NCBI GenBank assembly: GCA_965178125.1 | Contig: OZ237774.1 | Location: 1-64,000, forward strand | From: Bilabrum cf. latius | Lineage: Eukaryota | Direction: 5' to 3' | DNA: 64,000 nucleotides | Shown: in pieces, positions 1-47,858 of the stretch | Layout of the letters: each line of letters starts with the position of its first letter | Numbering within the stretch: position 1 is the stretch's first letter | Position numbers and translations under genes: made by a program | Notes under the pieces: generated by a model | Seen by the model: the letters and a program-made list of their open reading frames with translations, nothing else | What the model was told of the DNA's origin: nothing | Databases searched by the model: none

Positions 1-348
1 CAGACCTCGGCTAAATATGATCGTGAGGTGTCGGAATTTGAGGCGGTTGGCTTGACTCCTAGTTTTCTAGAATTTCCTGCTCCATTTGTCAAGGAATCCC
101 ATTTGAGCATTGGGATAAAGTTGGAGCAAGAAAATCCGATTCCTTTGAACGATACAATTTTGGTGATCGCTTCCATTGAAGAAGTACATATTAACTCTAA
201 GGCGGCAATCTTGAAAGACGGATTGATTGATCACAGTATTTTAGGGAATCTTTGTGTGAACGGATTAGACTCCTATTATAAACCAGAGCGTTTAAAGCGC
301 TTGGCATATGCTCAGCCAGATCAAACTCTAAAAGAAATAGACTGGTAA
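1..348 (+). CDS. Bacterial flavin reductase-like (DIM6/NTAB-type) protein, 5'-partial
   Basis: Frame runs in from the window edge; EFEAVGLT..APFVKES..LVIASIEEVH..GLDSYY resembles Bacteroidota flavin reductase family C-termini; TAA overlaps the phrB ATG. Confidence 0.6.
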   Translation, partial: QTSAKYDREVSEFEAVGLTPSFLEFPAPFVKESHLSIGIKLEQENPIPLNDTILVIASIEEVHINSKAAILKDGLIDHSILGNLCVNGLDSYYKPERLKRLAYAQPDQTLKEIDW

Positions 349-1644: not shown

Positions 1645-2726
1645 ATTCCGGTATCGTCTCCGAAGCTCAATTTAACGTCGTTAACAAAGCTCTTGATCAT
1701 TTGCTCATTTTGCATTTTGCAGATGAGGAGTGCTTCAGGGTGTATCAACCACAATGAATTCTTCAAGTCCTTCTACTACGGCAATCTTATCCTTGGGCAT
1801 ACGAATAATGTTGCCTTTACTATTATAGCTAAGAATCTTCGGGCCAACTAAAGCATTTCCTTCTTTATCCAGCTCTTTATGCTCATAAAGACTTCCCCAG
1901 GTTCCTAAATCGCTCCATCCAAAATCGGCTGGTATAACGAATACTTTACTTGATTTTTCCATCAGACCATAATCAATAGATTCATTGTTACAGGCCGGAT
2001 AGATTTCATTCACAAACTTTGCTTCTTCCGGGGTTCCGAATTTATCAGCTCCTTGTTCGAAGTTGTGGAAAAGGTCGGGTTGATGCTCTTCTAATTCTTG
2101 CTTAAAGGTTTTCAATGACCAAACGAAAATCCTGCATTCCATAGAAAATCACCGCTTTCTAAAAACTGCTTTGCGATTTCCAGATTAGGCTTCTCAGTGA
2201 AGGTTTTAACCTTTTTCACTTCAAGGTTTACCTGCTTTTGGTCTTCAAATTGGATATATCCGTATCCTGTATCAGGACGATGTGGTTTAATACCTAAAGT
2301 AATTAGGAAATCGCTTTCCTCGGCTGTTTTTAAGGCAAGGTTAGCGATCCTCACAAATTCGTTTTCATTACTGATAAGATGATCGGATGGAGCAATTAAG
2401 ATATTGGCTTCAGGATCCTCACTTTGTATACGATAGGCAGCATAGGCAATACAAGGTGCTGTATTCCGGCGAGCAGGTTCTAGTATTATGTTTTGGTGGG
2501 GCATCGCCGGCAATTGCTCGGCTACCTGATCTTCATACTTCTTATGAGTAACAACTAGAATTTTCTCGGGCTCGGTTAGCAAAGAGAGGCGGCGAAAGGT
2601 TTGTTGCAGAAGTGATTCACCAGTGCCTAGTATATCGTGAAACTGTTTGGGGTTCTCGGCGGTGCTCATGGGCCAAAAACGACTGCCAATGCCACCGGCC
2701 ATAATCACACAGTAAGTAGAAGCCAT
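1641..2726 (-). CDS. manC: Mannose-1-phosphate guanylyltransferase, two apparent 1-bp indels (~2129 and ~1739)
   Basis: MAGGIGSRFWPMS..PKQF, EPARRNTAPCI, FTEKP, WNAG(I)FVW, SIDYGLME, WSDLGTW; C-terminus ALLICK..VNDVK continues in a shifted frame to TAA at 1641-1643. Confidence 0.9.
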
Positions 2727-2842
2727 AATTTTTTCTTTGCCGCAAATCTACGATTCTAAGAGGCTCATTTAGCTTCGTTCCAGGGTTATTAAATTGCTAC
2801 TTTTGTGGCTTTTCACAATCGAACCAAAACTTTGAATTCAAC

Positions 2843-3415
2843 ATGCTGAATATCGTACTCTTTGGCCCTCCAGGGGCCGGAAAAGGAACTCAATCTGAAA
2901 AGCTTATTGACCAGTATCAGCTAAAACACTTAAGTACGGGTGATATTTTTAGAGCTAACATTAAGGGTGAAACCGAACTAGGGAAATTAGCTAAGTCTTT
3001 CATTGATAAAGGGGAGTTAGTACCTGATGAGGTTACCATTAACATGCTGAAAGCAGAGTTGGAAAAGGCCCCTGAAGCCAAAGGATTCATTTTCGATGGT
3101 TTTCCAAGAACCACCCCTCAGGCAGAGGCGCTGGATAAACTCCTCGAGAGCATGGGAAGCAAAATCTCTATTATGTTGGCTTTGGAAGTACCGGAGGAAG
3201 AACTAAAAGTAAGGCTATTGGAGCGGGCTAAGACTTCTGGACGTACAGATGATGCTGATCCCAATGTTATTCAAAATAGAATTGACACCTACAATAATCA
3301 AACTGCTCCCGTTAAGCATTTCTATGGCGGCCAGGATAAGCTAAAGGAAATTAATGGCCTGGGGGGAATCGATGAGATTACCCAACGCTTATATGACGCT
3401 ATCCATAGCTTATAA
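2843..3415 (+). CDS. adk: Adenylate kinase
   Basis: [11 protein letters not shown]-loop, HLSTGD, DGFPRT; short LID form (GRTDD). Confidence 0.97.
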
Positions 3416-3417
3416 AC

Positions 3418-4425
3418 ATGCAGGAGAACTTCGTAGATTACGTTAAGATTCATTGTAAATCTGGCAAAGGAGGCTCCGGTTCTCCTCATTTGCATCGTTC
3501 CAGGTTAACCTCTAAAGGCGGACCAGATGGAGGCGATGGAGGACTTGGTGGATCAGTAATCCTACGAGGAAATACTCAGATGTGGACCTTACTGCATTTG
3601 AAGTATCGGAAGCATATAAAAGCAAAAGCAGGGGGGAACGGTGGTCAAAACCAACGCACCGGTGCAAAGGGAGAGGATGAAGTCCTTGACGTACCCCTTG
3701 GCACAGTAGCCAAAGATGCTGAAACCGGTGAAATACTTTTTGAGATCACTGAAGACGGTGAAGAGAAAGTACTGCGGCAAGGAGGCCGGGGAGGTTTGGG
3801 AAATGTGCACTTTAAATCTGCGACTTTTCAAACTCCTCGATTTGCGCAACCCGGCGAGCCAGGGGAAGAAGGTTGGAACATCCTTGAGCTAAAAGTCTTA
3901 GCCGATGTGGGATTGGTTGGATTCCCAAATGCGGGCAAATCCACACTACTCTCGGTAGTATCGGCCGCTAAGCCAGAGATTGCCGATTATCCCTTTACTA
4001 CACTTACACCTAAATTAGGTATAGTGCAATACCGGGATTACCGTTCTTTTGTTATGGCGGATATCCCTGGCATCATTGAAGGAGCAAGTGAAGGTAAAGG
4101 ACTGGGTCATCGTTTTCTTCGTCACATCGAGCGTAATTCAATGCTGCTCTTTATGATACCGGCCGATACTGATGACGTAAGGAAGGAGTATGATATCCTT
4201 CGGTCTGAATTAGAACGCTTCAATCCGGAGTTATTAGACAAGCAACAACTTCTGGCCATCAGCAAAAGCGATATGCTTGATGATGAACTGCAAAATGAAA
4301 TGGAGGGCCAGTTAAGGGAAGACCTTCCACAAGGCTTGGAATTCATTTTTATATCTGCTATTAGTGGTAAAAACATCCAGGGTCTTAAGGATCGGCTTTG
4401 GCAAATGATGAATAAAGATGCTTGA
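3418..4425 (+). CDS. obgE: GTPase ObgE/CgtA
   Basis: Gly-rich Obg domain (GGPDGGDGG), [26 protein letters not shown]; directly downstream of adk. Confidence 0.97.
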
Positions 4426-4975
4426 GCGATTAATGAAATGGGATGAGGAGCTTTTTCTTTATCTCAACAATTTAGGAACCGAGTTTTGGGATCCTTTCTG
4501 GCTCAGAATGTCAGAGGTACTAATTTGGATTCCCCTTTATTTGGGATTAATCGTATTAGTTTTTTGGATATTTAAGTGGAAGAGTTCCTTCTTCATCTTA
4601 TTCTTCATACTTCTAAATGTTTTAGCTACAGATCAGGGTTCAGTAAGGCTTTTCAAGCAGCAGTTTGAAAGATCCAGACCTTGTCATGAAGAACACCTAC
4701 AGCCCCAGATTCGCTTAGTCAAGGGATCATGTGGTGGGGCTTATGGATTTATAAGCTCTCATGCCAGCAATACTTTTGGACTGGCTTTCTTTTTAGGATT
4801 ATTGTTCAGGCGTCGTTTTCCCTGGTTGTACTATTCATTATTGATCTGGGCATTAGCGGTATCCTATAGCAGAATTTACCTAGGTGTGCATTATCCTGGT
4901 GACATCCTAGGCGGAGCGCTTTATGGTGCACTTTGTGGTACCGGGGCTATTCCTGATTCTGGACTCCTGGCTTAA
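4418..4975 (+). CDS. PAP2-family phosphatase (membrane)
   Basis: K....RSRP, SSHA and [15 protein letters not shown]2 motifs; the true C-terminus may be altered by an indel. Confidence 0.88.
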
Positions 4976-4996
4976 TCTTGAAGAAAGGAAGGAAAC

Positions 4997-5365
4997 ATGA
5001 CTTGGATTTGGGTTTTCCTGGGAGGTGGTTTAGGCTCAATTGCAAGGTTTACAGTAAGTAAACTAGTGCTTGGCCTTTTCAACCAATCCCCTCAATTTCC
5101 TTTAGCTACTTTCATTTCCAATTTATTGGCTTCAGCTTTTTTGGCATTTTTGGTGATCAATGCTCCAGAAAAGCTAAATGAAAATCAGCGTTATTTCTGG
5201 GTCATTGGATTTTGTGGAGGATTTTCAACCTTTTCCACTTTTAGCCTGGAAAATTGGGTTTTAATAGAACAGAAGGCCTGGCTCTATTTAGTTCTAAATA
5301 TTCTATTAAGTGTAGCCCTGGGAATTACAGTAATGTTCCTGATGAGCAGAAACCTAACGGATTAA
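4997..5365 (+). CDS. crcB: Fluoride efflux channel CrcB/FluC
   Basis: GGGLGSIARF, FPLATF..N, GFCGGFSTFSTF signature; four hydrophobic segments. Confidence 0.93.
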   Translation: MTWIWVFLGGGLGSIARFTVSKLVLGLFNQSPQFPLATFISNLLASAFLAFLVINAPEKLNENQRYFWVIGFCGGFSTFSTFSLENWVLIEQKAWLYLVLNILLSVALGITVMFLMSRNLTD

Positions 5366-7542
5366 ACTGACCGTACCGCGTTTAGCTACTCCATTACCGG
5401 TCTCTTTATCAATCACATCAATTATATAGGTATAAACGCCACCGGGTAAAACTTCCCCTTCGTTTTGCATGCTGCCGTTCCAGAAGAAGCCAGGATCTTT
5501 ACTTTGAAAAACTAGCTGCCCCCAGCGATTGACAATTCTTATTTCAAAATTTCGAGTACCAAGGATCGAATAGGAGAATACATCATTTAAGCCATCTCCG
5601 TCTGGAGTAAAAGCATTTGGTATATAGAGCCTAAAAGGCTGTTGGACATAAGTCTCCACGATGGTGGTATCGCTGCAATTAAACTCATTATACACAATGT
5701 GGATGAACCGCTGGACACCGGTGTCTTTTGCCGAAAAGGTTACATCATTTGATGGATTAATCATTTTTCGACCGTTAGGTAGAATCAGCTCTGAGTTTAT
5801 ATAGTTCTCCGAAGTGATTAGAATATCAAACTCCGGATCAAATATGGTTACTTCCGGTGGTTCAATTTCCAATCCTGATATAGGACTCGGATGAATAACT
5901 ACAGGCACTGTGGATAGCTCTTCTAAGGTATCGCGACAACCACTAGTGGTAATTAGGCGGTGATATACGAAATAGTTACCTGCCTGTAAATAAACATGTT
6001 TTGGATTGGCGTCGGTAGATGTATTACCATCGCCAAAATCCCAGAAGTGAATGGCATTTCCTGAAAACTCTGAACTATCACTGAATTCCGTTGAGTAGGG
6101 AGCACAGCCTCCATTATCAATTATATCGTGAATTAGAATCGGACGCGGATAGAGTCGCACACTGTCCCTAAAAAAGTCTCTGCAGAAACCGTCTTGGACG
6201 TTTAGGGTTACCAAATAGTTCCCCGCTTGCTGATAGACGATATTAGTAGGATTGGCCAAATTAGAAGTATTCTGACCTCCCACTACAGTTCCACCAAAAT
6301 CCCAGAAGAATTCGGCATCCGGGCCATAATTTCCACTTGGGATGAAATCAAAGCTATGAGAGTCAAAGCAAGCCTGACCGCCAACTGTAAAACCAATATT
6401 CAGTCCATCAAATATTTTGAATTCGCGGATCATAGTATCAGCACAACCGGTTCCGGGATTGGCTACTAATGTGATTTGATAAATCCCGGTATCAGGAAAG
6501 GTGTAAGTAGGATTTGGTTTGTAACTGGTGTCATTATTAGTTCCGGCTACTCCAAAATCCCAAAACCAGTTATCAGTATTGGTGCAAAAGCTCTTTAAAG
6601 GTTACCGTGCGGCCGGAGCAAAGATCATAAGGGTCTAAATCTTGAGGTTCGAAATCGGCATCGGTTCGAACACAAGCGCTGGTGACATTGAATTGGAAAT
6701 CCCGTCTTAAGGTGCTTAATAACTGACCATTGCGCCATTCCTGAACACAAACAGCAAAAACATATTGCCCTACTTGGTTTGGCATTCCACTAAGTAAGCC
6801 GGTCTGCTGGTTTAAGTTAAATACAGGACCACTGGAAATGGGAAAACTTGTAGAATAGCCAGCAGCAAAGGGAACCTGAGTGTAAGGAGGAGCTGTAGCG
6901 GTATCAGGTCGTGGTGAGTTAGGACCGGTGGTGTTTACCTGGCTTCCTCCACCATGTAGAGGGGAGCAGAGAAAATAGCTTAAGCTATCACCATCACTTT
7001 CATTAGCCCCCATATCTACTTGTACAAATTGATTTAAGCAGAGGGCAACTGGAGGAGCCTTACTGAAGCTTGGACTGCTATTACAAGCAACATTCGTAGG
7101 AACCTCGATAGTGTAGGTACTTCCCCATAAGCGAGGATTTGGAATATTATCGATGCTATTGTTTCGGCAACAACGTTGATGGCTAAGCGTATAAGGCCCT
7201 CCCGCCGCGGGAAGAGTAATGGTGTCTAAATAGATGCCTTCTTGCGTGCAAACGAAGCTCGGCAAGGTCGTGCAACTATTCGGGGCATCGATTGGTAAAT
7301 TGGAGCTGCTGCGCAGGGGAACCCTTAGGTTGCGATACACTGCATTGGAAGAATTAAAAACCGTAATGATTGCAGGATCGTCAAAAGGTGCTCCATTGGA
7401 AGCGCAATCACGGTATATAACCAAACGGATTTCGTAGCGATTATTTCCTAAGCAAGAATAGGAAAGCTCCCCCCCCAACAAGGTGGGCGGCATCTAGCCC
7501 CAAAGTGCTTAAAAATAAAAGTAGAGTAACTATCCGCCGCAT
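5354..7542 (-). CDS. Secreted PKD-repeat protein with gliding-motility-associated (T9SS type B) C-terminal domain; two apparent +1 indels (~7470, ~6597)
   Basis: Signal peptide MRRIVTLLLFLSTLGLDA then HLVGGELSY; WDFG(D)G PKD motifs; C-terminal IPNAFTPDGDGLND..NRWGQLVF..GTVSLIR ending in a genuine TAG stop. Confidence 0.85.
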
Positions 7543-7604
7543 CTTCCGCCTTTCTACAAGCAAGGTAACAAAAATGGTCTTCCTGTGAGCTATCGAACTA
7601 AAAG

Positions 7605-8461
7605 TCAACTAGCTCGGAGAATCGATAAAAAATCATTGAAACCTAGTTTTTTAAAGTTCTCCGGATTTTCAAGGCGGCTTATCCAAACGAAATCTCCTCC
7701 CCATGCTCCCAATGACTTGACTGCTCCTTCGAAAGGGGGCAGGTTATTGCGATTTATTCTAGATCTGGAAATCAATTGGGCCGTTTTGGCTTCATGCTCG
7801 TTCATCCATTCTTCCAGAGATTGTATATCCGAAATGGAGGGCAGTAACCTGCTTAATTCCGAAATCTCAGCGATTAAATTTTCAGGCCTTTTAGTGGAAA
7901 GATATCGATTAACCTCTCTGGCACTGTTTTGCTTATTACCTAAATACAATAACCAGGTATCACCCAGAAAACCTGGTAATTGAACAGGATTCCAATGTGG
8001 TGTATGAGCGCTTTTAAGCTGATAACTGATGCATTTACCGGTTTGCGCTACCGCCACATCATAGCCACTTCCCTTTAAATTCTCAAAAAACAGGGGCCAG
8101 ACATCAGTCTCTGCCCAATCTGCAATTAAGCTTATGAAGGTACTGCTGCTCCCAAAGCCCCAAGCTCTGGGAAAGTCTAATTTGGTTTGAATGCTCCAGC
8201 CCTTTCTTTTTTCTTCCGCAAGGGCCGAGTGCATGATTTTTTGAACCAGAATTTCCGCATCAGATTGAGCCTTGGATAAAAGGAAATCTAGCCATGATTC
8301 TCCATTTTCATCAAAAGCCTGATAATGCAAATCATCAAGATTAAGGGCCTCTGCTTTTAAATGCTGCCCTTTAAAGGTGGGCACGGCCACAGCCTGTGCG
8401 CCTTCTAGAACACTGTACTCGCCACTTAGCAGTAATTTACCTGGGGCGAAAATTCCTTCAT
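7605..8461 (-). CDS. GHMP kinase (Bacteroidota GYDIA-type, mevalonate-pathway associated); apparent -1 T near the start
   Basis: APGKLLLSGEY, WGFGSSS, GSGYDVAVA, KSLGAWGGDF. Confidence 0.8.
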
Positions 8462-8548
8462 TTAGTGATCTTTCTTGATCTCCTCTGGACTTTTAATTCC
8501 GCGAAGTTCACAGAATTTGTTAACGGCAGCTGAGTGGGAGACAACCTT
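8462..8548 (-). CDS. 3' fragment of a bacterial gene (probably HMG-CoA reductase), cut off at the telomere junction
   Basis: KVVSHSAAVNKFCELRGIKSPEEIKKDH* abuts the GHMP kinase ATG; identity inferred from recalled Flavobacteriales gene order and a VVSHS-like C-terminus. Confidence 0.45.
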   Translation of the reverse strand, partial: KVVSHSAAVNKFCELRGIKSPEEIKKDH

Positions 8549-8550
8549 AA

Positions 8551-9057
8551 CCCTAACCCTAACCCTAACCCTAACCCTAACCCTAACCCTAACCCTAACC
8601 CTAACCCTAACCCTAACCCTAACCCTAACCCTAACCCTAACCCTAACCCTAACCCTAACCCTAACCCTAACCCTAACCCTAACCCTAACCCTAACCCTAA
8701 CCCTAACCCTAACCCTAACCCTAACCCTAACCCTAACCCTAACCCTAACCCTAACCCTAACCCTAACCCTAACCCTAACCCTAACCCTAACCCTAACCCT
8801 AACCCTAACCCTAACCCTAACCCTAACCCTAACCCTAACCCTAACCCTAACCCTAACCCTAACCCTAACCCTAACCCTAACCCTAACCCTAACCCTAACC
8901 CTAACCCTAACCCTAACCCTAACCCTAACCCTAACCCTAACCCTAACCCTAACCCTAACCCTAACCCTAACCCTAACCCTAACCCTAACCCTAACCCTAA
9001 CCCTAACCCTAACCCTAACCCTAACCCTAACCCTAACCCCCTAACCTAACCCCTAAC
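8551..9057. repeat. Outermost telomeric tract (CCCTAA)n = TTAGGG telomere, left chromosome end
   Basis: About 80 perfect CCCTAA units, degenerate over the innermost ~20 bp. Confidence 0.97.
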
Positions 9058-10346
9058 CTTCAATTGACCATACCGGCGCCGCGCGAGTAAAACGGAATCT
9101 GAGGTACAAATGGATCATGCTATGCCCCTGCCCCTTCCAAATGCAGTTTGAATCATCTTCATATCTGCCGTGGTTGCCGAGATCTCAATTCCGAATTTTG
9201 GCCCTTGAAAATCTTCAATTGACCATATCGGCGCCGCGCGAGTAAAACGGAATCTGAGGTACAAATGGATCATGCTATGCCCCTGCCCCTTCCAAATGCA
9301 GTTTGAATCATCTTCATATCTGCCGTGGTTGCCGAGATCTCAATTCCGAATTTTGGCCTTTGAAAATCTTCAATTGACCATATCGGCGCCGCGCGAGTAA
9401 AACGGAATCTGAGGTACAAATGGATCATGCTATGCCCCTGCCCCTTCCAAATGCAGTTTGAATCATCTTCATATCTGCCGTGGTTGCCGAGATCTCAATT
9501 CCGAATTTTGGCCTTTGAAAATCTTCAATTGACCATATCGGCGCCGCGCGAGTAAAACGGAATCTGAGGTACAAATGGATCATGCTATGCCCCTGCCCCT
9601 TCCAAATGCAGTTTGAATCATCTTCATATCTGCCGTGGTTGCCGAGATCTCAATTCCGAATTTTGGCCCTTGAAAATCTTCAATTGACCATATCGGCGCC
9701 GCGCGAGTAAAACGGAATCTGAGGTACAAATGGATCATGCTATGCCCCTGCCCCTTCCAAATGCAGTTTGAATCATCTTCATATCTGCCGTGGTTGCCGA
9801 GATCTCAATTCCGAATTTTGGCCCTTGAAAATCTTCAATTGACCATATCGGCGCCGCGCGAGTAAAACGGAATCTGAGGTACAAATGGATCATGCTATGC
9901 CCCTGCCCCTTCCAAATGCAGTTTGAATCATCTTCATATCTGCCGTGGTTGCCGAGATCTCAATTCCGAATTTTGGCCTTTGAAAATCTTCAATTGACCA
10001 TATCGGCGCCGCGCGAGTAAAACGGAATCTGAGGTACAAATGGATCCTGCTATGCCCCTGCCCCTTCCAAATGCAGTTTGAATCATCTTCATATCTGCCG
10101 TGGTTGCCGAGATCTCAATTCCGAATTTTGGCCCTTGAAAATCTTCAATTGACCATATCGGCGCCGCGCGAGTAAAACGGAATCTGAGGTACAAATGGAT
10201 CATGCTATGCCCCTGCCCCTTCCAAATGCAGTTTGAATCATCTTCATATCTGCCGTGGTTGCCGAGATCTCAATTCCAAATTTTAATGCAAAAAATGAAG
10301 ATGAAAATTTTTTTCCCCGACCCTGTCCCTGACTTTATATTAGATA
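9058..10346 (+). mobile_element. Telomere-embedded unit A: ~8 copies of a 155-bp repeat plus conserved terminus
   Basis: CAATTGACC recurs at 9061, 9216... (period 155); ends TGAAGATGAAAA..TTTTCCCCGACCCTGTCCCTGACTTTATATTAGATA|CCCTAA. Mobility is inferred. Confidence 0.6.
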
Positions 10347-10506
10347 CCCTAACCCTAACCCTAACCCTAACCCTAACCCTAACCCTAACCCTAACCCTAA
10401 CCCTAACCCTAACCCTAACCCTAACCCTAACCCTAACCCTAACCCTAACCCTAACCCTAACCCTAACCCTAACCCTAACCCTAACCCTAACCCTAACCCT
10501 AACCCT
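10347..10506. repeat. Internal telomeric tract (CCCTAA)n
   Basis: Perfect hexamer repeats. Confidence 0.97.
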
Positions 10507-10900
10507 AGAGATCGTATCCCGCAGGATTTCAGCATGAAAATCTTCAAGGCCCAATATTGGCGCCGCGCGTCAAAAGCGGAACCTGAGGAACATTTGGCCA
10601 ATGTTGTGGCCCTAGGCCGTCCCAACGCAATTTGAACGGTCTTCATATCTCCTGTGGTTGCCGAGATCGTATCCCGCAGGATTTCAGCATGAAAATCTTC
10701 AAGGCCCAATATTGGCGCCGCGCGTCAAGAGCGGAACCTGAGGAACATTTGGCCAATGATGTGGCCCTAGGCCGTCCCAACGCAATTTGAACGGTCTTCA
10801 TATCTCCTGTGGTTGCCGAGATCGTATCCCGCAGGATTTTGTCAAAAAGTGAAGATGAAAATATTTTTCCCCGACCCTGTCCCTGACTTTATAATAGATA
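10507..10900 (+). mobile_element. Telomere-embedded unit B: ~2 copies of a diverged 155-bp repeat plus the same terminus
   Basis: GAGATCGTATCC at 10508, 10663, 10818; ends CCCCGACCCTGTCCCTGACTTTATAATAGATA|CCCTAA. Confidence 0.6.
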
Positions 10901-11052
10901 CCCTAACCCTAACCCTAACCCTAACCCTAACCCTAACCCTAACCCTAACCCTAACCCTAACCCTAACCCTAACCCTAACCCTAACCCTAACCCTAACCCT
11001 AACCCTAACCCTAACCCTAACCCTAACCCTAACCCTAACCCTAACCCTAACC

Positions 11053-11083
<31 letters not shown>

Positions 11084-11128
11084 TAACCCTAACCTAAACC
11101 CCCTACCCCCCCCTAACCCCTACCCTAA
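10901..11128. repeat. Internal telomeric tract, degenerate inner end
   Basis: Perfect CCCTAA to ~11074, then variants CCTAA, CCCCCTA, CCCCTA. Confidence 0.95.
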
Positions 11129-11437
11129 CAGCAAGACGACTCTGAGAACGACGGTGGAGTGGAGGACAATGGCTTCACCGACTAGCAGCGGCACCTGGTG
11201 GACCGCATCCTCGCTGCCTGCGATGACACCGCGCTGGGCGTCAGCCGGACTCTCGACGACATGGTCGAGGACGTGCAGGAAACAATTCAAGAGAGGGACC
11301 AGGGATTGGGCATGCTCGCAGACCTGATGACGGCCCTCGAGAAGACGGCGGAAGGAGATCTCAATGCGGCAGACGTGGACGCTGTGGAGGCGCTCCTGGC
11401 AGCTGTCGGTGCGGAACCCTCCTCCGATGACGAGTGA
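11129..11437 (+). pseudogene. 5'-truncated 3' end of an acidic, helical-looking ORF (also at 12791-13099 and 14453-14761)
   Basis: Frame opens directly at the telomere junction: QQDDSENDGGVEDNGFTD(TAG 11183)QRHLVDRILAAC..SSDDE-TGA; GC3-rich codon usage like the host genes. Confidence 0.55.
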
Positions 11438-12526
11438 AAAGCAGCCAGGCGAAGTGAGAGCCAGCCAGAAGAATGGCACATGAGATCAGTGGCTGCTGGG
11501 CCAGCTTGTGAGAGGGGTTTGCCAATGTGTCGGCCAGTGACCCGTTAGGACGCAGTATGAGGGTTTCGGTTAGCCCAACCCTTCGTCTTGACTGTAAGCC
11601 AATCAGTACCTCATATCAAAACAATCCATAAATCAAATGCAATGCCATCTCCACCAATACTTTCAATACACAAACAACGCAATTCATGTAGACATCAACT
11701 TCACCATTGGCCCATATTGGCGCCGCGCGGCAGAAACGGAACCTGGGGAACATTTGGCCAATGTTGTGCACCTAGGCCGTCCCAATGCAGTTTCAACGGT
11801 CTTCATATCTCCTGTGGTTGCCGAGATCCTATGTTGCATATTTTCAGCATGCAAATCTTCATTGGCCCATATTGGCGCCGCGCGGCAGAAACGGAACCTG
11901 GGGAACATTTGGCCAATGTTGTGCACCTAGGCCGTCCTAATGCCGTTTCAACGGTCTTCATATCTCCTGTGGTTGCCGAGATCCTATGTTGCATATTTTC
12001 AGCATGCAAATCTTCATTGGCCCATATTGGCGCCGCGCGGCAGAAACGGAACCTGGGGAACATTTGGCCAATGTTGTGCACCTCGGCCGTCCCAATGCAG
12101 TTTCAACGGTCTTCATATCTCCTGTGGTTACCGAGATCCTATGTTGCATATTTTCAGCATGCAAATCTTCATTGGCCCATATTGGCGCCGCGCGGCAGAA
12201 ACGGAACCTGGGGAACATTTGGCCAATGTTGTGCACCTAGGCCGTCCCAATGCAGTTTCAACGGTCTTCATATCTCCTGTGGTTGCCGAGATCCTATGTT
12301 GCATATTTTCAGCATGCAAATCTTCATTGGCCCATATTGGCGCCGCGCGGCAGAAACGGAACCTGGGGAACATTTGGCCAATGTTGTGCACCTAGGCCGT
12401 CCCAATGCAGTTTCAACGGTCTTCATATCTCCTGTGGTTACCGAGATCCTATGTTGCATATTTTTGACAAAAAGTGAAGATGAAAATATTTTTTCCCCGA
12501 CCCTGTCCCTGACTTTATATTAGATA
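11129..12526 (+). mobile_element. Telomere-embedded unit C, copy 1: 5'-truncated CDS end, spacer, ~5 x 155-bp repeats, conserved terminus
   Basis: Near-identical copies at +1662 and +3324 bp; same GATA|CCCTAA end as units A and B. Confidence 0.65.
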
Positions 12527-12714
12527 CCCTAACCCTAACCCTAACCCTAACCCTAACCCTAACCCTAACCCTAACCCTAACCCTAACCCTAACCCTAACC
12601 CTAACCCTAACCCTAACCCTAACCCTAACCCTAACCCTAACCCTAACCCTAACCCTAACCCTAACCCTAACCCTAACCCTAACCCTAACCCTAACCCTAA
12701 CCCTAACCCTAACC

Positions 12715-12745
<31 letters not shown>

Positions 12746-12790
12746 TAACCCTAACCTAAACCCCCTACCCCCCCCTAACCCCTACCCTAA
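12527..12790. repeat. Internal telomeric tract
   Basis: CCCTAA repeats with the same degenerate inner end as 10901-11128. Confidence 0.95.
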
Positions 12791-14188
12791 CAGCAAGACG
12801 ACTCTGAGAACGACGGTGGAGTGGAGGACAATGGCTTCACCGACTAGCAGCGGCACCTGGTGGACCGCATCCTCGCTGCCTGCGATGACACCGCGCTGGG
12901 CGTCAGCCGGACTCTCGACGACATGGTCGAGGACGTGCAGGAAACAATTCAAGAGAGGGACCAGGGATTGGGCATGCTCGCAGACCTGATGACGGCCCTC
13001 GAGAAGACGGCGGAAGGAGATCTCAATGCGGCAGACGTGGACGCTGTGGAGGCGCTCCTGGCAGCTGTCGGTGCGGAACCCTCCTCCGATGACGAGTGAA
13101 AAGCAGCCAGGCGAAGTGAGAGCCAGCCAGAAGAATGGCACATGAGATCAGTGGCTGCTGGGCCAGCTTGTGAGAGGGGTTTGCCAATGTGTCGGCCAGT
13201 GACCCGTTAGGACGCAGTATGAGGGTTTCGGTTAGCCCAACCCTTCGTCTTGACTGTAAGCCAATCAGTACCTCATATCAAAACAATCCATAAATCAAAT
13301 GCAATGCCATCTCCACCAATACTTTCAATACACAAACAACGCAATTCATGTAGACATCAACTTCACCATTGGCCCATATTGGCGCCGCGCGGCAGAAACG
13401 GAACCTGGGGAACATTTGGCCAATGTTGTGCACCTAGGCCGTCCCAATGCAGTTTCAACGGTCTTCATATCTCCTGTGGTTGCCGAGATCCTATGTTGCA
13501 TATTTTCAGCATGCAAATCTTCATTGGCCCATATTGGCGCCGCGCGGCAGAAACGGAACCTGGGGAACATTTGGCCAATGTTGTGCACCTAGGCCGTCCT
13601 AATGCCGTTTCAACGGTCTTCATATCTCCTGTGGTTGCCGAGATCCTATGTTGCATATTTTCAGCATGCAAATCTTCATTGGCCCATATTGGCGCCGCGC
13701 GGCAGAAACGGAACCTGGGGAACATTTGGCCAATGTTGTGCACCTAGGCCGTCCCAATGCAGTTTCAACGGTCTTCATATCTCCTGTGGTTACCGAGATC
13801 CTATGTTGCATATTTTCAGCATGCAAATCTTCATTGGCCCATATTGGCGCCGCGCGGCAGAAACGGAACCTGGGGAACATTTGGCCAATGTTGTGCACCT
13901 AGGCCGTCCCAATGCAGTTTCAACGGTCTTCATATCTCCTGTGGTTGCCGAGATCCTATGTTGCATATTTTCAGCATGCAAATCTTCATTGGCCCATATT
14001 GGCGCCGCGCGGCAGAAACGGAACCTGGGGAACATTTGGCCAATGTTGTGCACCTAGGCCGTCCCAATGCAGTTTCAACGGTCTTCATATCTCCTGTGGT
14101 TACCGAGATCCTATGTTGCATATTTTTGACAAAAAGTGAAGATGAAAATATTTTTTCCCCGACCCTGTCCCTGACTTTATATTAGATA
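12791..14188 (+). mobile_element. Telomere-embedded unit C, copy 2
   Basis: Duplicate of 11129-12526 at an offset of 1662. Confidence 0.65.
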
Positions 14189-14376
14189 CCCTAACCCTAA
14201 CCCTAACCCTAACCCTAACCCTAACCCTAACCCTAACCCTAACCCTAACCCTAACCCTAACCCTAACCCTAACCCTAACCCTAACCCTAACCCTAACCCT
14301 AACCCTAACCCTAACCCTAACCCTAACCCTAACCCTAACCCTAACCCTAACCCTAACCCTAACCCTAACCCTAACC

Positions 14377-14407
<31 letters not shown>

Positions 14408-14452
14408 TAACCCTAACCTAAACCCCCTACCCCCCCCTAACCCCTACCCTAA
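14189..14452. repeat. Internal telomeric tract
   Basis: Same length and variants as 12527-12790. Confidence 0.95.
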
Positions 14453-15850
14453 CAGCAAGACGACTCTGAGAACGACGGTGGAGTGGAGGACAATGGCTTC
14501 ACCGACTAGCAGCGGCACCTGGTGGACCGCATCCTCGCTGCCTGCGATGACACCGCGCTGGGCGTCAGCCGGACTCTCGACGACATGGTCGAGGACGTGC
14601 AGGAAACAATTCAAGAGAGGGACCAGGGATTGGGCATGCTCGCAGACCTGATGACGGCCCTCGAGAAGACGGCGGAAGGAGATCTCAATGCGGCAGACGT
14701 GGACGCTGTGGAGGCGCTCCTGGCAGCTGTCGGTGCGGAACCCTCCTCCGATGACGAGTGAAAAGCAGCCAGGCGAAGTGAGAGCCAGCCAGAAGAATGG
14801 CACATGAGATCAGTGGCTGCTGGGCCAGCTTGTGAGAGGGGTTTGCCAATGTGTCGGCCAGTGACCCGTTAGGACGCAGTATGAGGGTTTCGGTTAGCCC
14901 AACCCTTCGTCTTGACTGTAAGCCAATCAGTACCTCATATCAAAACAATCCATAAATCAAATGCAATGCCATCTCCACCAATACTTTCAATACACAAACA
15001 ACGCAATTCATGTAGACATCAACTTCACCATTGGCCCATATTGGCGCCGCGCGGCAGAAACGGAACCTGGGGAACATTTGGCCAATGTTGTGCACCTAGG
15101 CCGTCCCAATGCAGTTTCAACGGTCTTCATATCTCCTGTGGTTGCCGAGATCCTATGTTGCATATTTTCAGCATGCAAATCTTCATTGGCCCATATTGGC
15201 GCCGCGCGGCAGAAACGGAACCTGGGGAACATTTGGCCAATGTTGTGCACCTAGGCCGTCCTAATGCCGTTTCAACGGTCTTCATATCTCCTGTGGTTGC
15301 CGAGATCCTATGTTGCATATTTTCAGCATGCAAATCTTCATTGGCCCATATTGGCGCCGCGCGGCAGAAACGGAACCTGGGGAACATTTGGCCAATGTTG
15401 TGCACCTAGGCCGTCCCAATGCAGTTTCAACGGTCTTCATATCTCCTGTGGTTACCGAGATCCTATGTTGCATATTTTCAGCATGCAAATCTTCATTGGC
15501 CCATATTGGCGCCGCGCGGCAGAAACGGAACCTGGGGAACATTTGGCCAATGTTGTGCACCTAGGCCGTCCCAATGCAGTTTCAACGGTCTTCATATCTC
15601 CTGTGGTTGCCGAGATCCTATGTTGCATATTTTCAGCATGCAAATCTTCATTGGCCCATATTGGCGCCGCGCGGCAGAAACGGAACCTGGGGAACATTTG
15701 GCCAATGTTGTGCACCTAGGCCGTCCCAATGCAGTTTCAACGGTCTTCATATCTCCTGTGGTTACCGAGATCCTATGTTGCATATTTTTGACAAAAAGTG
15801 AAGATGAAAATATTTTTTCCCCGACCCTGTCCCTGACTTTATATTAGATA
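14453..15850 (+). mobile_element. Telomere-embedded unit C, copy 3
   Basis: Duplicate of 11129-12526 at an offset of 3324. Confidence 0.65.
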
Positions 15851-16237
15851 CCCTAACCCTAACCCTAACCCTAACCCTAACCCTAACCCTAACCCTAACC
15901 CTAACCCTAACCCTAACCCTAACCCTAACCCTAACCCTAACCCTAACCCTAACCCTAACCCTAACCCTAACCCTAACCCTAACCCTAACCCTAACCCTAA
16001 CCCTAACCCTAACCCTAACCCTAACCCTAACCCTAACCCTAACCCTAACCCTAACCCTAACCCTAACCCTAACCCTAACCCTAACCCTAACCCTAACCCT
16101 AACCCTAACCCTAACCCTAACCCTAACCCTAACCCTAACCCTAACCCTAACCCTAACCCTAACCCTAACCCTAACCCTAACCCTAACCCTAACCCTAACC
16201 CTAACCCTAACCCTAACCCTTACCTAAAAAAACCCTA
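15851..16237. repeat. Internal telomeric tract
   Basis: About 60 CCCTAA units, then degenerate CCCCTTACCTAAAAAAACCCTA. Confidence 0.95.
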
Positions 16238-17575
16238 GCACATGCTTTGAATGGCCAACTCTTTGCCGGAACACATGCAATCGCTGCGTTTCAAGTGTCT
16301 AATCGTATGTACACATCGCGGGGCACACAATGGTGTCTATACATATCGACTCCGGATCCACCCCATGGCGGCACACGGCCCTGACGGATTTCACTGACCC
16401 TGCGGAACCGCGGCGCCGCGGTACCTGACACCACCTGATGTGTGTTCCCCGGGTGGCATGGACCCCGATACATCTGCTGCATCGAGAACCAAACATCAAA
16501 CGCTCATCTGTAGACCTGGACACGCCCGAACGCATAGGTCGGATCTCCGACTGATTTTGGAGATCCGACCTGCGCAAAATGGTCGGATGTCCTCCATATC
16601 TCGGCCGGAACACCTGCAATCGCTGCGTTTCAAGTGTCTAATCGTATGTACACATCGCGGGGCACACAATGGTGTCTATGCATATCGACTCCGGATCCAC
16701 CCCATGGCGGCACACGGCCCTGACGGATTTCACTGACCCTGCGGAACCGCGGCGCCGCGGTACCTGACACCACCTGATGTGTGTTCCCCGGGTGGCATGG
16801 ACCCCGATACATCTGCTGCATCGAAAACCAAACATCAAACGCTCATCTGTAGACCTGGACACGCCCGAACGCATAGGTCGGATCTCCGACTGATTTTGGA
16901 GATCCGACCTGCGCAAAATGGTCGGATGTCCTCCATATCTCGGCCGGAACACATGCAATCGCTGCGTTTCAAGTGTCTAATCGTATGTACACATCGCGGG
17001 GCACACAATGGTGTCTATACATATCGACTCCGGATCCACCCCATGGCGGCACACGGCCCTGACGGATTTCACTGACCCTGCGGAACCGCGGCGCCGCGGT
17101 ACCTGACACCACCTGGTGTGTGTTCCCCGGGTGGCATGGACCCCGATACATCTTCTGCATCGAGAACCAAACATCAAACGCTCATCTGTAGACCTGGACA
17201 CGCCCGAACGCATAGGTCGGATCTCCGACTGATTTTGGAGATCCGACCTGCGCAAAATGGTCGGATGTCCTCCATATCTCGGCCGGAACACATGCAATCG
17301 CTGCGTTTCAAGTGTCTAATCGTATGTACACATCGCGGGGCACACAATGGTGTCTATACATATCGACTCCGGATCCACCCCATGGCGGGACACGGCCCTG
17401 ACGGATTTCACTGACCCTGCGGAACCGCGGCGCCGCGGAGAGTTATGACCCGATTCGGAGTTGTAACCTAGGTTTCAAAGCATGCCCAATCAGAATATAT
17501 TGATCTTGTTCCCTGAGCCGCGCTTGCGTAAAAGCCGAAAATGGCCAACCCTAAGTATAAGTTGACCCCCTGATA
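16238..17575 (+). mobile_element. Telomere-embedded unit D: ~3.5 copies of a 339-bp repeat plus a unique terminus ending TGATA|CCCTAA
   Basis: GCCGGAACAC at 16265, 16604, 16943, 17282; contains the palindrome CCGCGGCGCCGCGG; same GATA junction as A-C. Confidence 0.55.
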
Positions 17576-17685
17576 CCCTAACCCTAACCCTAACCCTAAC
17601 CCTAACCCTAACCCTAACCCTAACCCTAACCCTAACCCTAACCCTAACCCTAACCCTAACCCTAACCCTAACCCTAACCCCCCTA
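17576..17685. repeat. Innermost telomeric tract
   Basis: About 17 CCCTAA units with a degenerate inner end. Confidence 0.95.
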
Positions 17686-17687
17686 TA

Positions 17688-17921
17688 GGCAAGCATTGGT
17701 ATGATGCTGTGCGGGTGGCTTGATGGGCGAGCGGCGGATGGTGGCAAGCAGTGGTACGATGCTGCGCGGGTGGCTTGATGGGCGAGCGGCGGATGGTGGC
17801 AAGCAGTGGTATGATGCTGCGCGGGTGGCTTGTTGGGCGAGCGGTGGATGGTGGCAAGCAGTGGTATGATGCTGCGCGGGTGGCTCGATGGGCGAGCGGC
17901 GGATGGTGGCAAGCCGTGGTA
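17688..17921. repeat. 55-bp tandem minisatellite (~4.2 copies)
   Basis: GGCAAGC at 17688, 17743, 17798, 17853, 17908. Confidence 0.9.
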
Positions 17922-18002
17922 ACCAAAATTTCGATCCCATCATCACCACGCATACGTCCAATGCACACATTGAGCGCCCTCCTGTCTCTTGTCTGCATGC
18001 AG

Positions 18003-18638
18003 GGGACCAAGGCGCAGGCAGCCGCCAGGGCTGCCCGCTCCCTCGGCCAGGGGGTCATCCAGGACCTGCTGCAGGCCGTGCGGCCCCCAAGCAAGGAGGG
18101 TGGGCCGGCTGTGCGCGCGTACATGCAGAGCCTGATCGTGGCCAACGAGGAGATGAGCAAGGAGGCCGATGAGCGCAACACGGCCATGGCTCGAGAGGCG
18201 GCCATGGGCATGGGCGCGGCTGGTTCAAGCATGGGCCAACAGGAAGCCCTAGCTTCTTTGAGGAATTTCCGGTCTTCGCAAAAAATGCCAGTGTGGTCTT
18301 CAGGCAAAGTACAAGGGGCGCAGCGCAAGACCTTTGGCGCCCTCAGGTCGTCGGGGCTGGCTGCCAGTGGCAGTGGGGGCTCTCGCCGCAAGTCTGTCGC
18401 AAAACTGGCAGAGGTGAAGACTATGGGCAAGAGCGCTAGTCGGAGCAAGCTCGAGCTCGCCCCGCTGAGTGTCAGTGCCTCTGCTGCTGCACCAGCCCCG
18501 GTGGAGGACAACTCGGGCTCTGATAGCAGGCGCGGCTCAGTCGCAGGGTGGAACCACCACTGGCAGTCTGGATTCGACGGTTCGGACCAACTGCAGTGTA
18601 CCCCTCTGCACGACCTGCGCGGCTCTTTAGTGCTATGA
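18003..18638 (+). pseudogene. Probable terminal exon of a 5'-truncated subtelomeric gene, unknown product
   Basis: Polypyrimidine tract and CAG acceptor at 18000-18002, followed by a GC3-rich open frame to TGA; no upstream exon before the telomere. Confidence 0.35.
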
Positions 18639-18789: not shown

Positions 18790-21565
18790 ATGCTACGGTT
18801 CGCCCAGCGTACTCGTGCTCGGAACTCTGTCTTGCGTGCCACAAGAAGATATGTATCGTATGGAACAGCCCAACACGCTGTAGCTCGCGCTTTCGGTATT
18901 CTCGAATCTGGAGTGTCGACTGGAACGCATTCGGCTGTCAGGTTCCAAGCCACTCGACGTGGCCTGGCCTCGGCTGCAGGGACTTCCAAGCATGAAGACC
19001 CAGTGCAAGTGAAGATTGGCTCAGATAAGATCGCCACAGTTACAATCGATGACCCTACATCAAAGGTATGGCACTATATCGGGCAGTTGTATTGCATCGG
19101 ACGGCTCCGGAGAATCGAATGACCGGCGCGATCATGTCCAGCATAGGTTGCATTTGCAGCTATTTCACACAATCTTGCTTGGTGACCCCGTTATAAGTAT
19201 GTTTGTCCATTCTTTCCATGGGAAATTTTACCCGAATTGCCACCGCAGGTGAACACCCTGAGCACGCGGCTGAACGAATCCTTCGAGAGCGCCCTCAAGA
19301 CCTTGGAGCAGGGAGCCAGAGACGGTTCTATCCGTGCAGTCATTCTTGCATCTGGCAAAGGGACGCCCGAGTCGAAGTCGCCTTGCTTTGTGGCAGGCGC
19401 AGACATCGGAATGCTGGCGGCGTGCAAGACGGCCGAAGAGCTGGCGGGGCTCTCCCGCCAGGGACAGGTCATGATGGATCGACTCGAGGCTATTCATGCC
19501 TCGCACGGAGTTCCCGTCGTGGCTGCGATTTCCGGAGATTGCCTGGGGGGCGGCCTGGAGCTGGCACTGGCGTGTTCCTACCGCGTTGCCTCATCGCACC
19601 CTAAGACCAAGCTGGGATTGCCCGAGGTGCAGCTGGGGCTGCTGCCAGGGGCCGGGGGCACCCAGCGGCTGTGGCCCCTCGTGGGCATCCAGCAGGCCAT
19701 CAAGATGACCACCACCGGGTAGCGGCTGTCGGCGGACCGCGCCCGCAAGGCCGGCCTCGTGGACGCAGTGGCCGACCCTTTCGCGATGGAGCACGCGGCC
19801 CGTGTGGCTGCCGAGGGTCTGGCAAATGGGAGCCTCAAGCCGAAGCGCAAGCAGCAGAAGTTCCCCATGTCTCTGCTGGAGAACAACCCGGTGGGCAGGC
19901 AGGCCCTCTGGCACTTCGCCCAGCAGGGTGTGGACAAGCAGGCCCCCAAGCACGCCTACCCCGCGGTGCACTCGATCCTCAACACGATCAAGGAGGGCGT
20001 GGAGGCTGGCAAGGGCAAGGGCCTGCAGAAGGAGGCGGACGAGTTCGGGAAACTGGGCATGACCAGCCAGTCTAGGTCTCTCAGGGGCCTCTTCTTCGCC
20101 CAGCAGGGCACCAAGACCCACGACCAGTACCCCAAGCCCAAGGGGGATGACGCCAAGCCCAAGAGGGTGGCGGTCCTGGGGGCGGGGCTCATGGGAGCGG
20201 GGGTGGCAGAGGTGACGGCCCTTCGTGCCGGCACCCAGGTGGTGCTCAAGGACATGACGGCCGAGGGGCTGGCCCGGGGGCAGGGGCAGGTGGCGGCCTC
20301 TATGGGGGGGCAGGTCAAGCGCAGGAGGATGCGTCAGTTCGAGGCGGACAAGGTCTGCGCCCGCGTGCTTGGGGTGTCTATGGACGAGCCCGGAGGGGAG
20401 GAGACGTGGAAGAAGCTGGCCCGGGGCACCGACGCAGTGGTGGAGGCGGTGTTCGAGGACCTAGGGCTGAAGCAGAGGATCTTCGGAGAACTGGAGGAGC
20501 AGATGCCTAAGCACGCCATTCTCGCGACCAACACGAGTGCCCTCCCGATCGCAGACGTGGCCCAGGGGTGCAAGACACCCGAGGGCAGGGCCCGTGTGGT
20601 GGGCATGCACTATTTCTCCCCCGTCCCCAAGATGCCTCTGGTGAGTTAGACCATCTCGAGCTGTGCTGCCCGCCCACCTACGGCCACTGCCTGCACCTGA
20701 TACCACGTGTTGCCATGCATCCTTCCTTTCCCCTCGATCCCCTCGATCTCCTCGATCTCCCCTCGCTCGCTCGCAGCTGGAGATCATCCCGCACAAGGAC
20801 ACCGACCCGGCCATCGTGGGGCGGGCGCTGGCCCTGGGACAGGCACAGGGCAAGACGTGCATCGTTGTAGGCGACGTGCCCGGGTTCTTCGTGAACAGGT
20901 GCCTTGGCCCGTACATGGACGAGACCTCGGTGCTGATGGGCACCGAGGGAGTGGAGCTCAAGGCCTTGGACAGAGCCATGGGCCCCAGGGGATTCGGGTT
21001 CCCCGTGGGCCCCGTGACTCTGGCCGACGAGGTTGGTCTGGATGTTGCTCTCAAGGTGCAGCAGTTCCTGGGGGGCGCACTGGGAGACCGCATGGGTGCC
21101 GGTGACCCGGCTGCGCTCGCGGCTCTGGTGGAGAAGGGTGCTCTCGGTCGCAAGGCCAAGCGGGGCCTCTTCCAGTACGACGGCAAGGGCAAGAAGTCGG
21201 GGGTCAGCTCCGAGGCGCAGGAGGCCATCAAGGCGGCGAGGGCGGCCAAGTCCACTACTGTCGACAAGGACTGGATCTCGGAGGAGGCCATGGCAGAGCG
21301 CATTGCACTGCGGTTCACGAAGGAGGCGCTGCTCTGCCTGCAGGACGGGGTGGTGAGGTCTGCGGCCGACGGGGACATCGGGGCGGTGTTCGGGGTGGGC
21401 TTCGCGCCCTTCAAGGGGGGTCCCTTCCAGTGGGTGGATGAGCAGGGGGCGCAGAAGGTGGCAGATGATATGCAGAGGTGGGCGGACAGGCTGGGCCCCC
21501 AGTTCGCGCCCCCTCAGATCTTGCTGGATCACGCCAAGGACGGCAACAAGAAGTTCCGGCAGTGA
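18790..21565 (+). CDS. HADHA: Mitochondrial trifunctional enzyme alpha subunit (enoyl-CoA hydratase / 3-hydroxyacyl-CoA dehydrogenase); introns 19066-19248 and 20641-20776; in-frame TAG at 19720
   Basis: Arg-rich presequence; DDPTSK|VNTLS, CLGGGLELALAC, LGLPEVQLGLLPGAGGTQRL, TTG*RLSADRARKAGLVD, VLGAGLMGAG, HYFSPVPKMPL|LEII, PGFFVNR; GT-AG introns in phase; TGA stop. Confidence 0.93.
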
Positions 21566-47681: not shown

Positions 47682-47858
47682 GGAAACTGCAGACTTGATG
47701 ACGCAGTTTATAATACAGCAACAGTTAAGCTGCGCTGCCTGGTTTTGGCGATTATTGTCAGGCAGTGTGTGTCGAGGCGCCTGCAATTCATGCGGACTCG
47801 AAACGACGCGCAACTGCCCAGAACCTCTTTGGTCCGAACCGTCACGCTGCACGGTGAA

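Follow-up and report, generated by a model that had tools for sequence, protein, structure and literature searches.

The first 64,000 nucleotides of contig OZ237774.1 from the eukaryote Bilabrum cf. latius (assembly GCA_965178125.1, forward strand), referred to here as the window, harbor a polarised array of short satellite units embedded in telomere repeats at positions 9058–17685. Four independent kinds of unit can be told apart in it, and the chromosome end was extended five times, two of these additions being demonstrably templated by DNA. For the array as a whole, the reading tentatively favored, with confidence just short of even, is that subtelomere modules were copied in a break-induced, Y'-like manner by way of interstitial telomere tracts. 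It was rated slightly above the view that the units are telomere-specific retroelements, as had been proposed in the initial annotation of this DNA. The features of the array, with tandem repeats called with Tandem Repeats Finder (TRF), are as follows.

8543–9057, + strand: terminal telomere, 81 perfect repeats at 8551–9036 followed by a 22-nt proximal zone of variant repeats.
9058–10346, + strand: unit A, starting within a monomer; 155-bp repeat, 7.9 copies (9058–10284), and terminus at about 10286–10346, up to GATA.
10347–10507, + strand: interstitial (fossil) telomere 1, 26 perfect repeats at 10347–10502 followed by CCCTA.
10508–10900, + strand: unit B, starting within a monomer; 155-bp repeat variant, 2.1 copies, and terminus at about 10840–10900, up to GATA.
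10901–11131, + strand: fossil telomere 2, 29 perfect repeats at 10901–11074 followed by a 57-nt variant zone.
11132–12526, + strand: unit C1, consisting of a coding sequence remnant, a non-coding stretch, a 155-bp array and the terminus, up to GATA.
11132–11434, + strand: end of an orphan coding sequence in C1, its last 101 codons, with an in-frame TAG at 11183–11185 and the stop TGA at 11435–11437.
11438–11704, + strand: non-coding stretch of C1, 267 nt.
11705–12464, + strand: 155-bp repeat array of C1, 4.9 copies.
12465–12526, + strand: terminus of C1, with GATA at its end.
12527–15850, + strand: two more 1662-bp super-units, each made of 35 perfect repeats, the 57-nt variant zone and a C body.
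12527–12736 and 14189–14398, + strand: tracts between the C copies, 35 perfect repeats each.
12794–14188, + strand: unit C2.
14456–15850, + strand: unit C3.
15851–16240, + strand: fossil telomere 5, 61 perfect repeats at 15851–16216 followed by a 24-nt variant zone.
16241–17575, + strand: unit D, a 24-nt leader, a 339-bp repeat of 3.5 copies (16265–17438) and a 137-nt tail (17439–17575), up to GATA.
17576–17687, + strand: innermost fossil telomere, 17 perfect repeats at 17576–17677 followed by a 10-nt variant zone.

Six units alternate with seven tracts in the order telomere, A, B, C1, C2, C3, D and a 55-bp repeat, and each unit ends in GATA followed by perfect repeats. This is in agreement with the initial annotation, which had described six units in one orientation alternating with CCCTAA tracts; the GATA|CCCTAA junctions that it had placed at 10346, 10900, 12526, 14188, 15850 and 17575 were all found. 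The seven perfect (CCCTAA)n tracts lie in 8551–17677, and the C-rich strand is the + strand in every one of them. Each tract consists of an unbroken perfect zone with variant repeats (5–57 nt) at its proximal, right-hand edge only (7/7). Working telomeres are normally laid out in this way, and each tract was therefore once one of them. Because the + strand reads CCCTAA, the G strand points leftwards, its 3' end facing position 1. At each of the six internal junctions, this 3' end meets the complement of GATA, indicating that the units were added onto telomere 3' ends and not the tracts onto the units. Each tract thus closes off the unit to its right at a distal end that was broken or incomplete, and was later buried by the unit to its left; the most distal tract (8551) is preceded by ...CAACCTTAA and not by GATA. 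The G-strand caps start with TAGGG or GTTAGGG and continue in stuttered runs, as would be expected of telomerase beginning on a non-telomeric end. The innermost fossil telomere is probably the earliest chromosome end. The polarity of the units does not tell an RNA template from a DNA template.

The evidence for a DNA template comes from the three copies of unit C. The 57-nt variant zone of fossil telomere 2 was found again at 12737–12793 and 14399–14455, and comparison of the 1452-nt bodies of C1, C2 and C3, this zone included, gave 0, 1, and 1 mismatches; C2 and C3 are identical, and C1 departs from them by one nucleotide and six fewer repeats. The near identity of the bodies and the variant zone, together with the two tracts of 35 repeats, shows that a 1662-bp block of tract plus unit was duplicated as DNA. 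C1–C3 are therefore not independent insertions, which leaves only four independent units, and the triplication makes the copying of a telomere into an interstitial tract the only mechanism with direct evidence at this locus. Among the independent units, divergence is strong. The 155-bp variants of A, B, and C are equal in length and differ by substitutions only (108/155 identical positions for A–B, 110/155 for A–C, and 134/155 for B–C), so that the B monomer has an identity of 86.5% to C and 69.7% to A; copies inside any one array are 98–99% identical. TRF also confirmed the earlier distinction between a 155-bp and a 339-bp repeat family, the latter with 3.5 copies in D. Such diverged independent units with homogenised arrays (69.7–86.5% between the A, B, and C monomers, D being unrelated) fit end-specific satellites better than one recently active family.

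That the array stands at a true chromosome end follows from what lies to its left, which is given here with the repeat on its right.

1–8550, strand not assigned: bacterial stretch outside the array, Flavobacteriales, Croceimicrobium-like, joined to the terminal telomere.
17688–17921, + strand: G-rich 55-bp repeat (TRF), 4.3 copies, 94% matches, separating the innermost fossil telomere from the first host genes.

The GC content of 1–8550 is 41–44%, vs. 57–71% per 2-kb window beyond 18 kb. Its open reading frames (ORFs), read by eye, are bacterial in kind (photolyase, adenylate kinase, Obg, PAP2, CrcB, and a protein with a C-terminal sorting domain), and neighboring ORFs sit in shifted frames. 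The Obg protein showed 90% amino acid identity to that of a Croceimicrobium (Flavobacteriales) metagenome-assembled genome, and two Croceimicrobium-like loci were found to be collinear with 82–8556 of the window, both extending about 860 bp beyond the telomere junction. Since the bacterial synteny ends at the junction, the join is chimeric and the contig is best trimmed at about 8543–8550; judged from these sequence comparisons, 1–8550 is most likely a contaminant that entered via a chimeric read or an assembly join. As the DNA left of 8551 is bacterial, the tract of 81 repeats is the real terminal telomere, and the array lies at a true chromosome end.

A false join at the contig end raises the question of whether the array itself could be an assembly artefact, in which reads from several chromosome ends were strung together via their telomere repeats, every such end having only one module. 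The proven join to bacterial DNA, the frame-split bacterial genes, as in poorly polished long reads, and the near-identical C1–C3, which resemble an over-expanded repeat, would be in keeping with it. However, a junction between GATA and the distal end of a tract is impossible from simple chromosome ends and must exist in real molecules, and it occurs in two unrelated families. C1, moreover, differs by one base and six repeats, so that a mechanical duplication does not account for it, and the common telomere stretches are only 102–366 bp, which is short for long-read overlap. An artefact is the least probable of the readings considered here.

In the favored reading, that of DNA-templated copying, a real chromosome end would have been rebuilt several times, each round following the same cycle. 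A telomere, probably shortened, would use its G-strand 3' end as a primer to copy a subtelomere module, namely a tandem-repeat array with its conserved proximal terminus, adjoining an interstitial telomere tract; this would turn the old telomere into a buried interstitial tract, and telomerase would then re-cap the newly made distal end, which was broken or incomplete. The template would most likely be DNA of the sister chromatid or of another chromosome end that carries modules, copied by break-induced replication (BIR) or D-loop extension. The orientation of the tracts, their native polarity, the attachment of the units to the G-strand 3' end and the duplication of C1–C3 as DNA are directly visible at the locus. 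D, C, B, and A would each have first arrived by the same DNA-templated route, and like modules would be expected at other chromosome ends. DNA copying alone can explain all five additions by one process, and it matches the lack of any retroelement hallmark in the window. Its precedents are also close, namely Y' elements, the array and spacer modules of green algae and a tandem structure in Chlamydomonas telomerase mutants.

The distal ends of the units bear on the choice of template. The initial annotation had described them as breaking at arbitrary points, and this held for A and B, which start within a 155-bp monomer, and for C, which starts within coding sequence; D does not start within its repeat, having a 24-nt leader of its own. 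The leader is a patchwork from the tail of the same unit, 11 nt inverted and 13 nt direct (scores reached by 11 and 18 of 2000 shuffles), which is a mark of template switching. Each D repeat contains a hairpin, formed by an inverted repeat of 13 perfectly matched bp around a 10-nt loop (16536–16571, with copies at +339 and +678), and carries a 22-nt palindrome, GGAACCGCGGCGCCGCGGTACC; the D array stops exactly inside that palindrome, at 17438, and the palindromes may mark break or switch points.

The proximal ends are more uniform. In BLAST comparisons, the terminus shared by C and B extended over 65 nt at 95.4% identity and that shared by C and A over 59 nt at 96.6%, so that the common terminus of A, B, and C noted previously was recovered, with a length of 59–65 nt in place of about 55 bp. 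Identical columns among the three termini numbered 56/61, 58/61, and 55/60 (92–95%), vs. 90/130, 110/130, and 90/130 (69–85%) in the adjoining 130 upstream columns (Fisher p = 4e-4, 0.054, and 5e-4). In A, B, and C alike, the repeat gives way to the terminus abruptly and at one and the same monomer position. Three hexamers of the terminus (CCCCGA, CCCTGT, and CCCTGA) are telomere-like, and one CCCTAA plus CCCCCTGATA are present in the D tail. Homology between the D tail and the A/B/C terminus was considered and rejected: the best local score was 14, against a shuffle mean of 12.9, and 704/2000 shuffles and 482/1996 80-mers of the window scored as high. A gapped alignment with CCCTGA...TA in both was likewise without statistical support, and GATA alone is common to the two. 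A, B, and C being homologous and C1–C3 being copies, GATA is independent only twice, in the A/B/C family and in D. A second element found in both families is the 9-mer GGCGCCGCG, which occurs once per 155-bp monomer in all three variants and also inside the 22-nt palindrome of each 339-bp unit. It has 35 matches in the window, of which 33 lie in the array (9075–17437), vs. 1.46 expected; the others are at 44786 and 53000. The 9-mer could be a candidate protein-binding site common to both repeat families, and under DNA copying it and the terminus would have been kept for a service to the host, as a protein-binding or boundary site.

Several of these observations weigh against DNA-templated copying. 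The A/B/C terminus, from its pattern of conservation, looks like the cis-acting 3' end of a mobile element. The unrelated D also ends in GATA (a chance of 1/256, or of 1/64 when its final A is assigned to the telomere), and the DNA-copying model offers no reason for an end common to both families. Of the four independent units, three (A, B, and C) are shortened distally, each at a different point; incomplete reverse transcription produces such cuts by its nature, whereas under the DNA model every one of them calls for a separate break and its healing. The sole coding remnant lies in sense, as an RNA intermediate would require, which is worth a factor of two. The DNA model also requires donor modules at other chromosome ends, and the window covers one end.

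These points are taken up by the principal alternative, that the units represent two families of non-autonomous telomere-specific retroelements. A reverse transcriptase (RT) supplied from elsewhere would copy plus-strand RNA off the telomere 3'-OH; the RNA would end in ...GATA plus C-strand repeats, its tail pairing with the G overhang or being placed by a telomere-cutting endonuclease. Copying would often be incomplete, telomerase would re-cap the product, and later recombination would have triplicated C. The polarity, the fixed in-register 3' junction, the variable distal ends and the re-capping all fit this scheme, and the anatomy is as described for Terminons/Athena and MoTeR/FoTeR, in which shortened copies are more numerous than full ones. 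A terminus better conserved than the adjoining repeats would be comparable to the common 3' ends of short and long interspersed elements (SINE/LINE) or of MoTeR2 and MoTeR1, and the telomere-like hexamers of the terminus and the D tail resemble the short reverse-complement telomeric stretches of endonuclease-deficient Penelope-like elements (PLEs). GATA and GGCGCCGCG in two unrelated families, the patchwork leader of D, as template jumps would give, and the distal shortening of A, B, and C likewise speak for retroelements, as does the order of unit C (ORF end, non-coding stretch, tandem repeats, and terminus), with its ORF in sense and host-like in codon use.

The searches for retroelement hallmarks were negative. 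No RT, endonuclease or Gag Pfam domain was found in 42 of the 59 ORFs of at least 50 amino acids in the array (translated with TAG as Gln), the other 17 being copies of repeat units already included, nor in 123 of the 124 ORFs of at least 150 amino acids at 17.6–64 kb, where the single ORF outside the scan was that of NAT10; the earlier statement that the window holds no visible RT is thus borne out. Neither a PLE-type RT nor an ORF combining RT and a restriction-enzyme-like (REL) endonuclease was found within the 64-kb window. An Rfam search of 9000–18100 on both strands gave no match at E ≤ 1, hammerhead ribozymes included. Four 3' termini (the last 90 nt plus 18 nt of repeats) folded no better than their shuffles (z = 0.57, 0.22, 0.32, and −1.56), and no poly(A) was present at the unit junctions, which are of the form GATA|CCCTAA. 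A Y'-type helicase ORF (Y'-Help1) was also not found; the C remnant showed neither a Pfam domain nor a true homologue. The absence of RT, endonuclease, Gag, an Rfam match, a stable 3' fold and poly(A) counts against retroelements, as does the lack of any true homologue of the ORF remnant in a search of 1.84 billion representatives. Half of the six units are DNA duplicates, the four lineages are strongly diverged although the perfect flanking tracts indicate recent events, and BIR through interstitial telomere tracts yields every structural feature too. Retroelements are nevertheless rated nearly as likely as DNA copying, though likewise short of even. Of the telomere-primed system proposed earlier, the fixed proximal end on the G-strand 3' end, the distal re-capping and the two families stood, whereas RT, hammerhead ribozyme and poly(A) were not encountered in the window, the polarity proved to be obtainable from DNA copying as well, in which a telomeric 3' end invades an interstitial tract and copies the sequence on its distal side, and C1–C3 turned out to be DNA duplicates.

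The absence of an enzyme could also be explained if the units were alternative templates for the cell's own telomerase or for a TERT-derived enzyme, that is, enzyme-less RNAs copied onto G overhangs. Such RNAs would have in common only the tag ...GAUA beside CCCUAA, mimicking the template and boundary of telomerase RNA. This would account for the common four-base junction and for the absent RT, ribozyme and poly(A), and, if true, it would mean that a telomerase-positive protist builds subtelomeres by telomerase-coupled retro-copying of satellite RNA. It is considered very unlikely, ranking with the artefact and far behind both DNA copying and retroelements.

The coding content of the array was evaluated under a modified genetic code. 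With TAG read as Gln, four Pfam domains of host genes (FA_desaturase, ECH_1, DUF747, and tRNA-synt_2b) became continuous and scored higher; examples of in-frame TAG in 18000–64000 are at 19720–19722, at 27863–27865 and at four sites within 24714–26834. The TAG of the seryl-tRNA synthetase gene corresponds to the Gln in the motif CTDYQ of both PDB homologues with alignments shown, and 11 of 12 long ORFs stop at TGA. Based on these alignments and domain scores, TAG is most likely a sense codon for Gln in this organism, in support of the translation suggested in the initial annotation; a literature search on a UAG=Gln stramenopile returned nothing relevant. With TAG as a sense codon, the in-frame TAG of the C remnant is not a defect. 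The remnant (11132–11434, + frame) has host-like codon use, scoring +0.61 bit per codon vs. 0.24–0.69 in held-out host genes, and its remaining five frames score from +0.17 to −1.28, which upholds the placement of the sole coding remnant on the C-rich strand. A search for the identity of the remnant gave two matches among the 1.84 billion representatives, a phage head-fibre repeat protein and a TPR protein; both are internally repetitive and were judged spurious. The repeat arrays are also open in places. The D repeat is exactly 113 codons long, and under TAG=Gln its minus strand is open through all 3.5 copies (15765–17474, 570 amino acids including telomere repeats), while neither TGA nor TAA interrupts any of the plus-strand frames of the C-type 155-bp monomer (open region 11561–12529). 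As genes, these frames were rejected, their codon use not being host-like (−0.22 to −0.56 bit per codon), and they probably arose by chance.

Proximal to the array, the 55-bp repeat at 17688–17921 is presumably the original, native subtelomere of this arm. Host genes begin within 1.3 kb of it, with an enoyl-CoA hydratase/3-hydroxyacyl-CoA dehydrogenase from 19186, and the ordinary genes of a eukaryotic chromosome body thus start at about 19 kb. A BLAST search within the window found no further copies of unit parts in 18–64 kb. Two observations in this region concern host genes. A 2114-codon ORF at 41676–48017 (− strand) has 12 in-frame TAGs and WW and LRR domains, and within it lies a 36-bp tandem repeat of 21.5 copies (42253–43025) that encodes the 12-residue repeats SAALDEGEVNGK. 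The NAT10 ORF at 59957–63292 (− strand) codes for 1111 amino acids without introns, and a search of 5.8 billion clusters gave no relative with an identity of more than 58%; its best named matches are from Cafeteria (51%) and oomycetes (47–49%), with animals at about 48%. The host would thus be a GC-rich protist of an unsampled lineage, possibly close to the stramenopiles.

Head-to-tail arrays embedded in telomeres bear on how subtelomeres are built and spread, and on the kinship of telomerase, PLEs, and telomeric retrotransposons. The present locus is an unusually clean record of this kind, with five successive additions parted by former telomeres of native polarity in a telomerase-positive host with a reassigned stop codon. 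If the units were copied from DNA, Y'-style copying of telomeres into interstitial tracts would act far outside the yeasts and with telomerase present. If they are retroelements, they would be of a new kind without ribozyme and poly(A), the sole common signal being a four-base end beside C-strand repeats.

Among the known systems, the Y' elements of Saccharomyces cerevisiae are described as tandem copies with interstitial telomeric sequences (ITSs) of 20–500 bp proximal to and between the copies, with an internal array of 36-mers and ORFs, amplified by BIR and circles (PMC13177704). The present array is similar in its tandem copies of one orientation, in its proximal interstitial tracts (here 102–366 bp) and in unit C, which combines an ORF remnant with a 155-bp array and was triplicated together with its tract; DNA-templated copying was found for C1–C3 only. 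It differs from Y' elements, which are mostly full length and encode a helicase, in that its units are 0.4–1.4 kb without a helicase, A, B, and C stop short distally, each at its own point, and the GATA junction is common to two unrelated families.

MoTeR of Magnaporthe and FoTeR of Fusarium, telomeric non-LTR retrotransposons of the CRE clade, are described as forming arrays in TTAGGG telomeres with their 5' ends toward the terminus and their 3' ends followed by canonical C-strand repeats; they have telomere-like variant repeats at their 5' junctions, frequent truncation and internal tandem repeats, and MoTeR2 has the 3' end of MoTeR1 (PMC7367193, PMC12857005). The former report states that MoTeR arrays grow by transposition, BIR, and D-loop or rolling-circle copying, and that identical interstitial tracts and variant repeats exclude serial transposition and imply D-loop or rolling-circle extension (PMC7367193). 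The units studied here likewise have their 5' ends toward the chromosome terminus and their 3' ends followed by canonical C-strand repeats, and the ORF remnant is in sense on the + strand. Unlike in MoTeR/FoTeR, the defining ORF with RT and REL endonuclease was not found in the window, and the interstitial tracts are of 17–61 repeats, vs. the 1–18 quoted for MoTeR/FoTeR arrays. The 5' variant repeats of MoTeR/FoTeR are a fixed part of the element, whereas the variant zones here (5–57 nt) differ in length and sequence among A, B, C, and D and fit aged or imprecise telomere starts as well as a feature of an element.

Endonuclease-deficient PLEs (Athena and Coprina) and Terminons are described as telomere-capped, 5'-truncated head-to-tail arrays; reverse-complement telomeric repeats at the 3' ends of the copies pair with G overhangs, a hammerhead ribozyme lies immediately upstream of these repeats, and a PLE-type RT is present (PMC8557442, PMC6431247). 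C-strand repeats at the 3' end, 5' truncation, telomeric caps and head-to-tail order are common to these elements and the present array, which differs from them in that no hammerhead ribozyme was found in 9000–18100 and no PLE-type RT in the window. HeT-A/TART/TAHRE of Drosophila also form terminal head-to-tail 5'-truncated units with 3' ends toward the centromere. In contrast to the present array, where no poly(A) and no Gag/RT were found and telomerase repeats cap every unit, Drosophila has poly(A) joins, Gag/RT ORFs, and no telomerase repeats (PMC5537684 in part, otherwise general background).

In green algae, an array adjoins the telomere and is followed proximally by a spacer conserved across chromosome ends; in Chlamydomonas these are the Sultan array and a short, non-repetitive Spacer. 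The Sultan repeats have telomere-like seeds and truncated, healed distal units, and their spread is ascribed to segmental duplication and BIR (PMC8287924). In Chlamydomonas telomerase mutants, a tandem duplication of a fragment plus nine telomeric repeats (an ITS) plus a Sultan array was described (PMC10620057). The 155-bp arrays followed by a 61-nt terminus conserved in A, B, and C are similar to Sultan plus Spacer. The difference is that Sultan has one module per end, with the spacer followed by a (GGGA)n microsatellite, whereas here a former telomere follows and different modules are stacked.

The locus thus fits no RT-defined family and lacks the Y' helicase; it works like Y', MoTeR or Terminon arrays. 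Stacked telomere-embedded arrays built by end-to-end copying or by telomere-seeking retroelements are already known from yeasts, fungi, algae, and rotifers. What is new here is the combination of short satellite modules, two unrelated families with a common four-base end, and long polarised fossil telomeres in a telomerase-positive protist.

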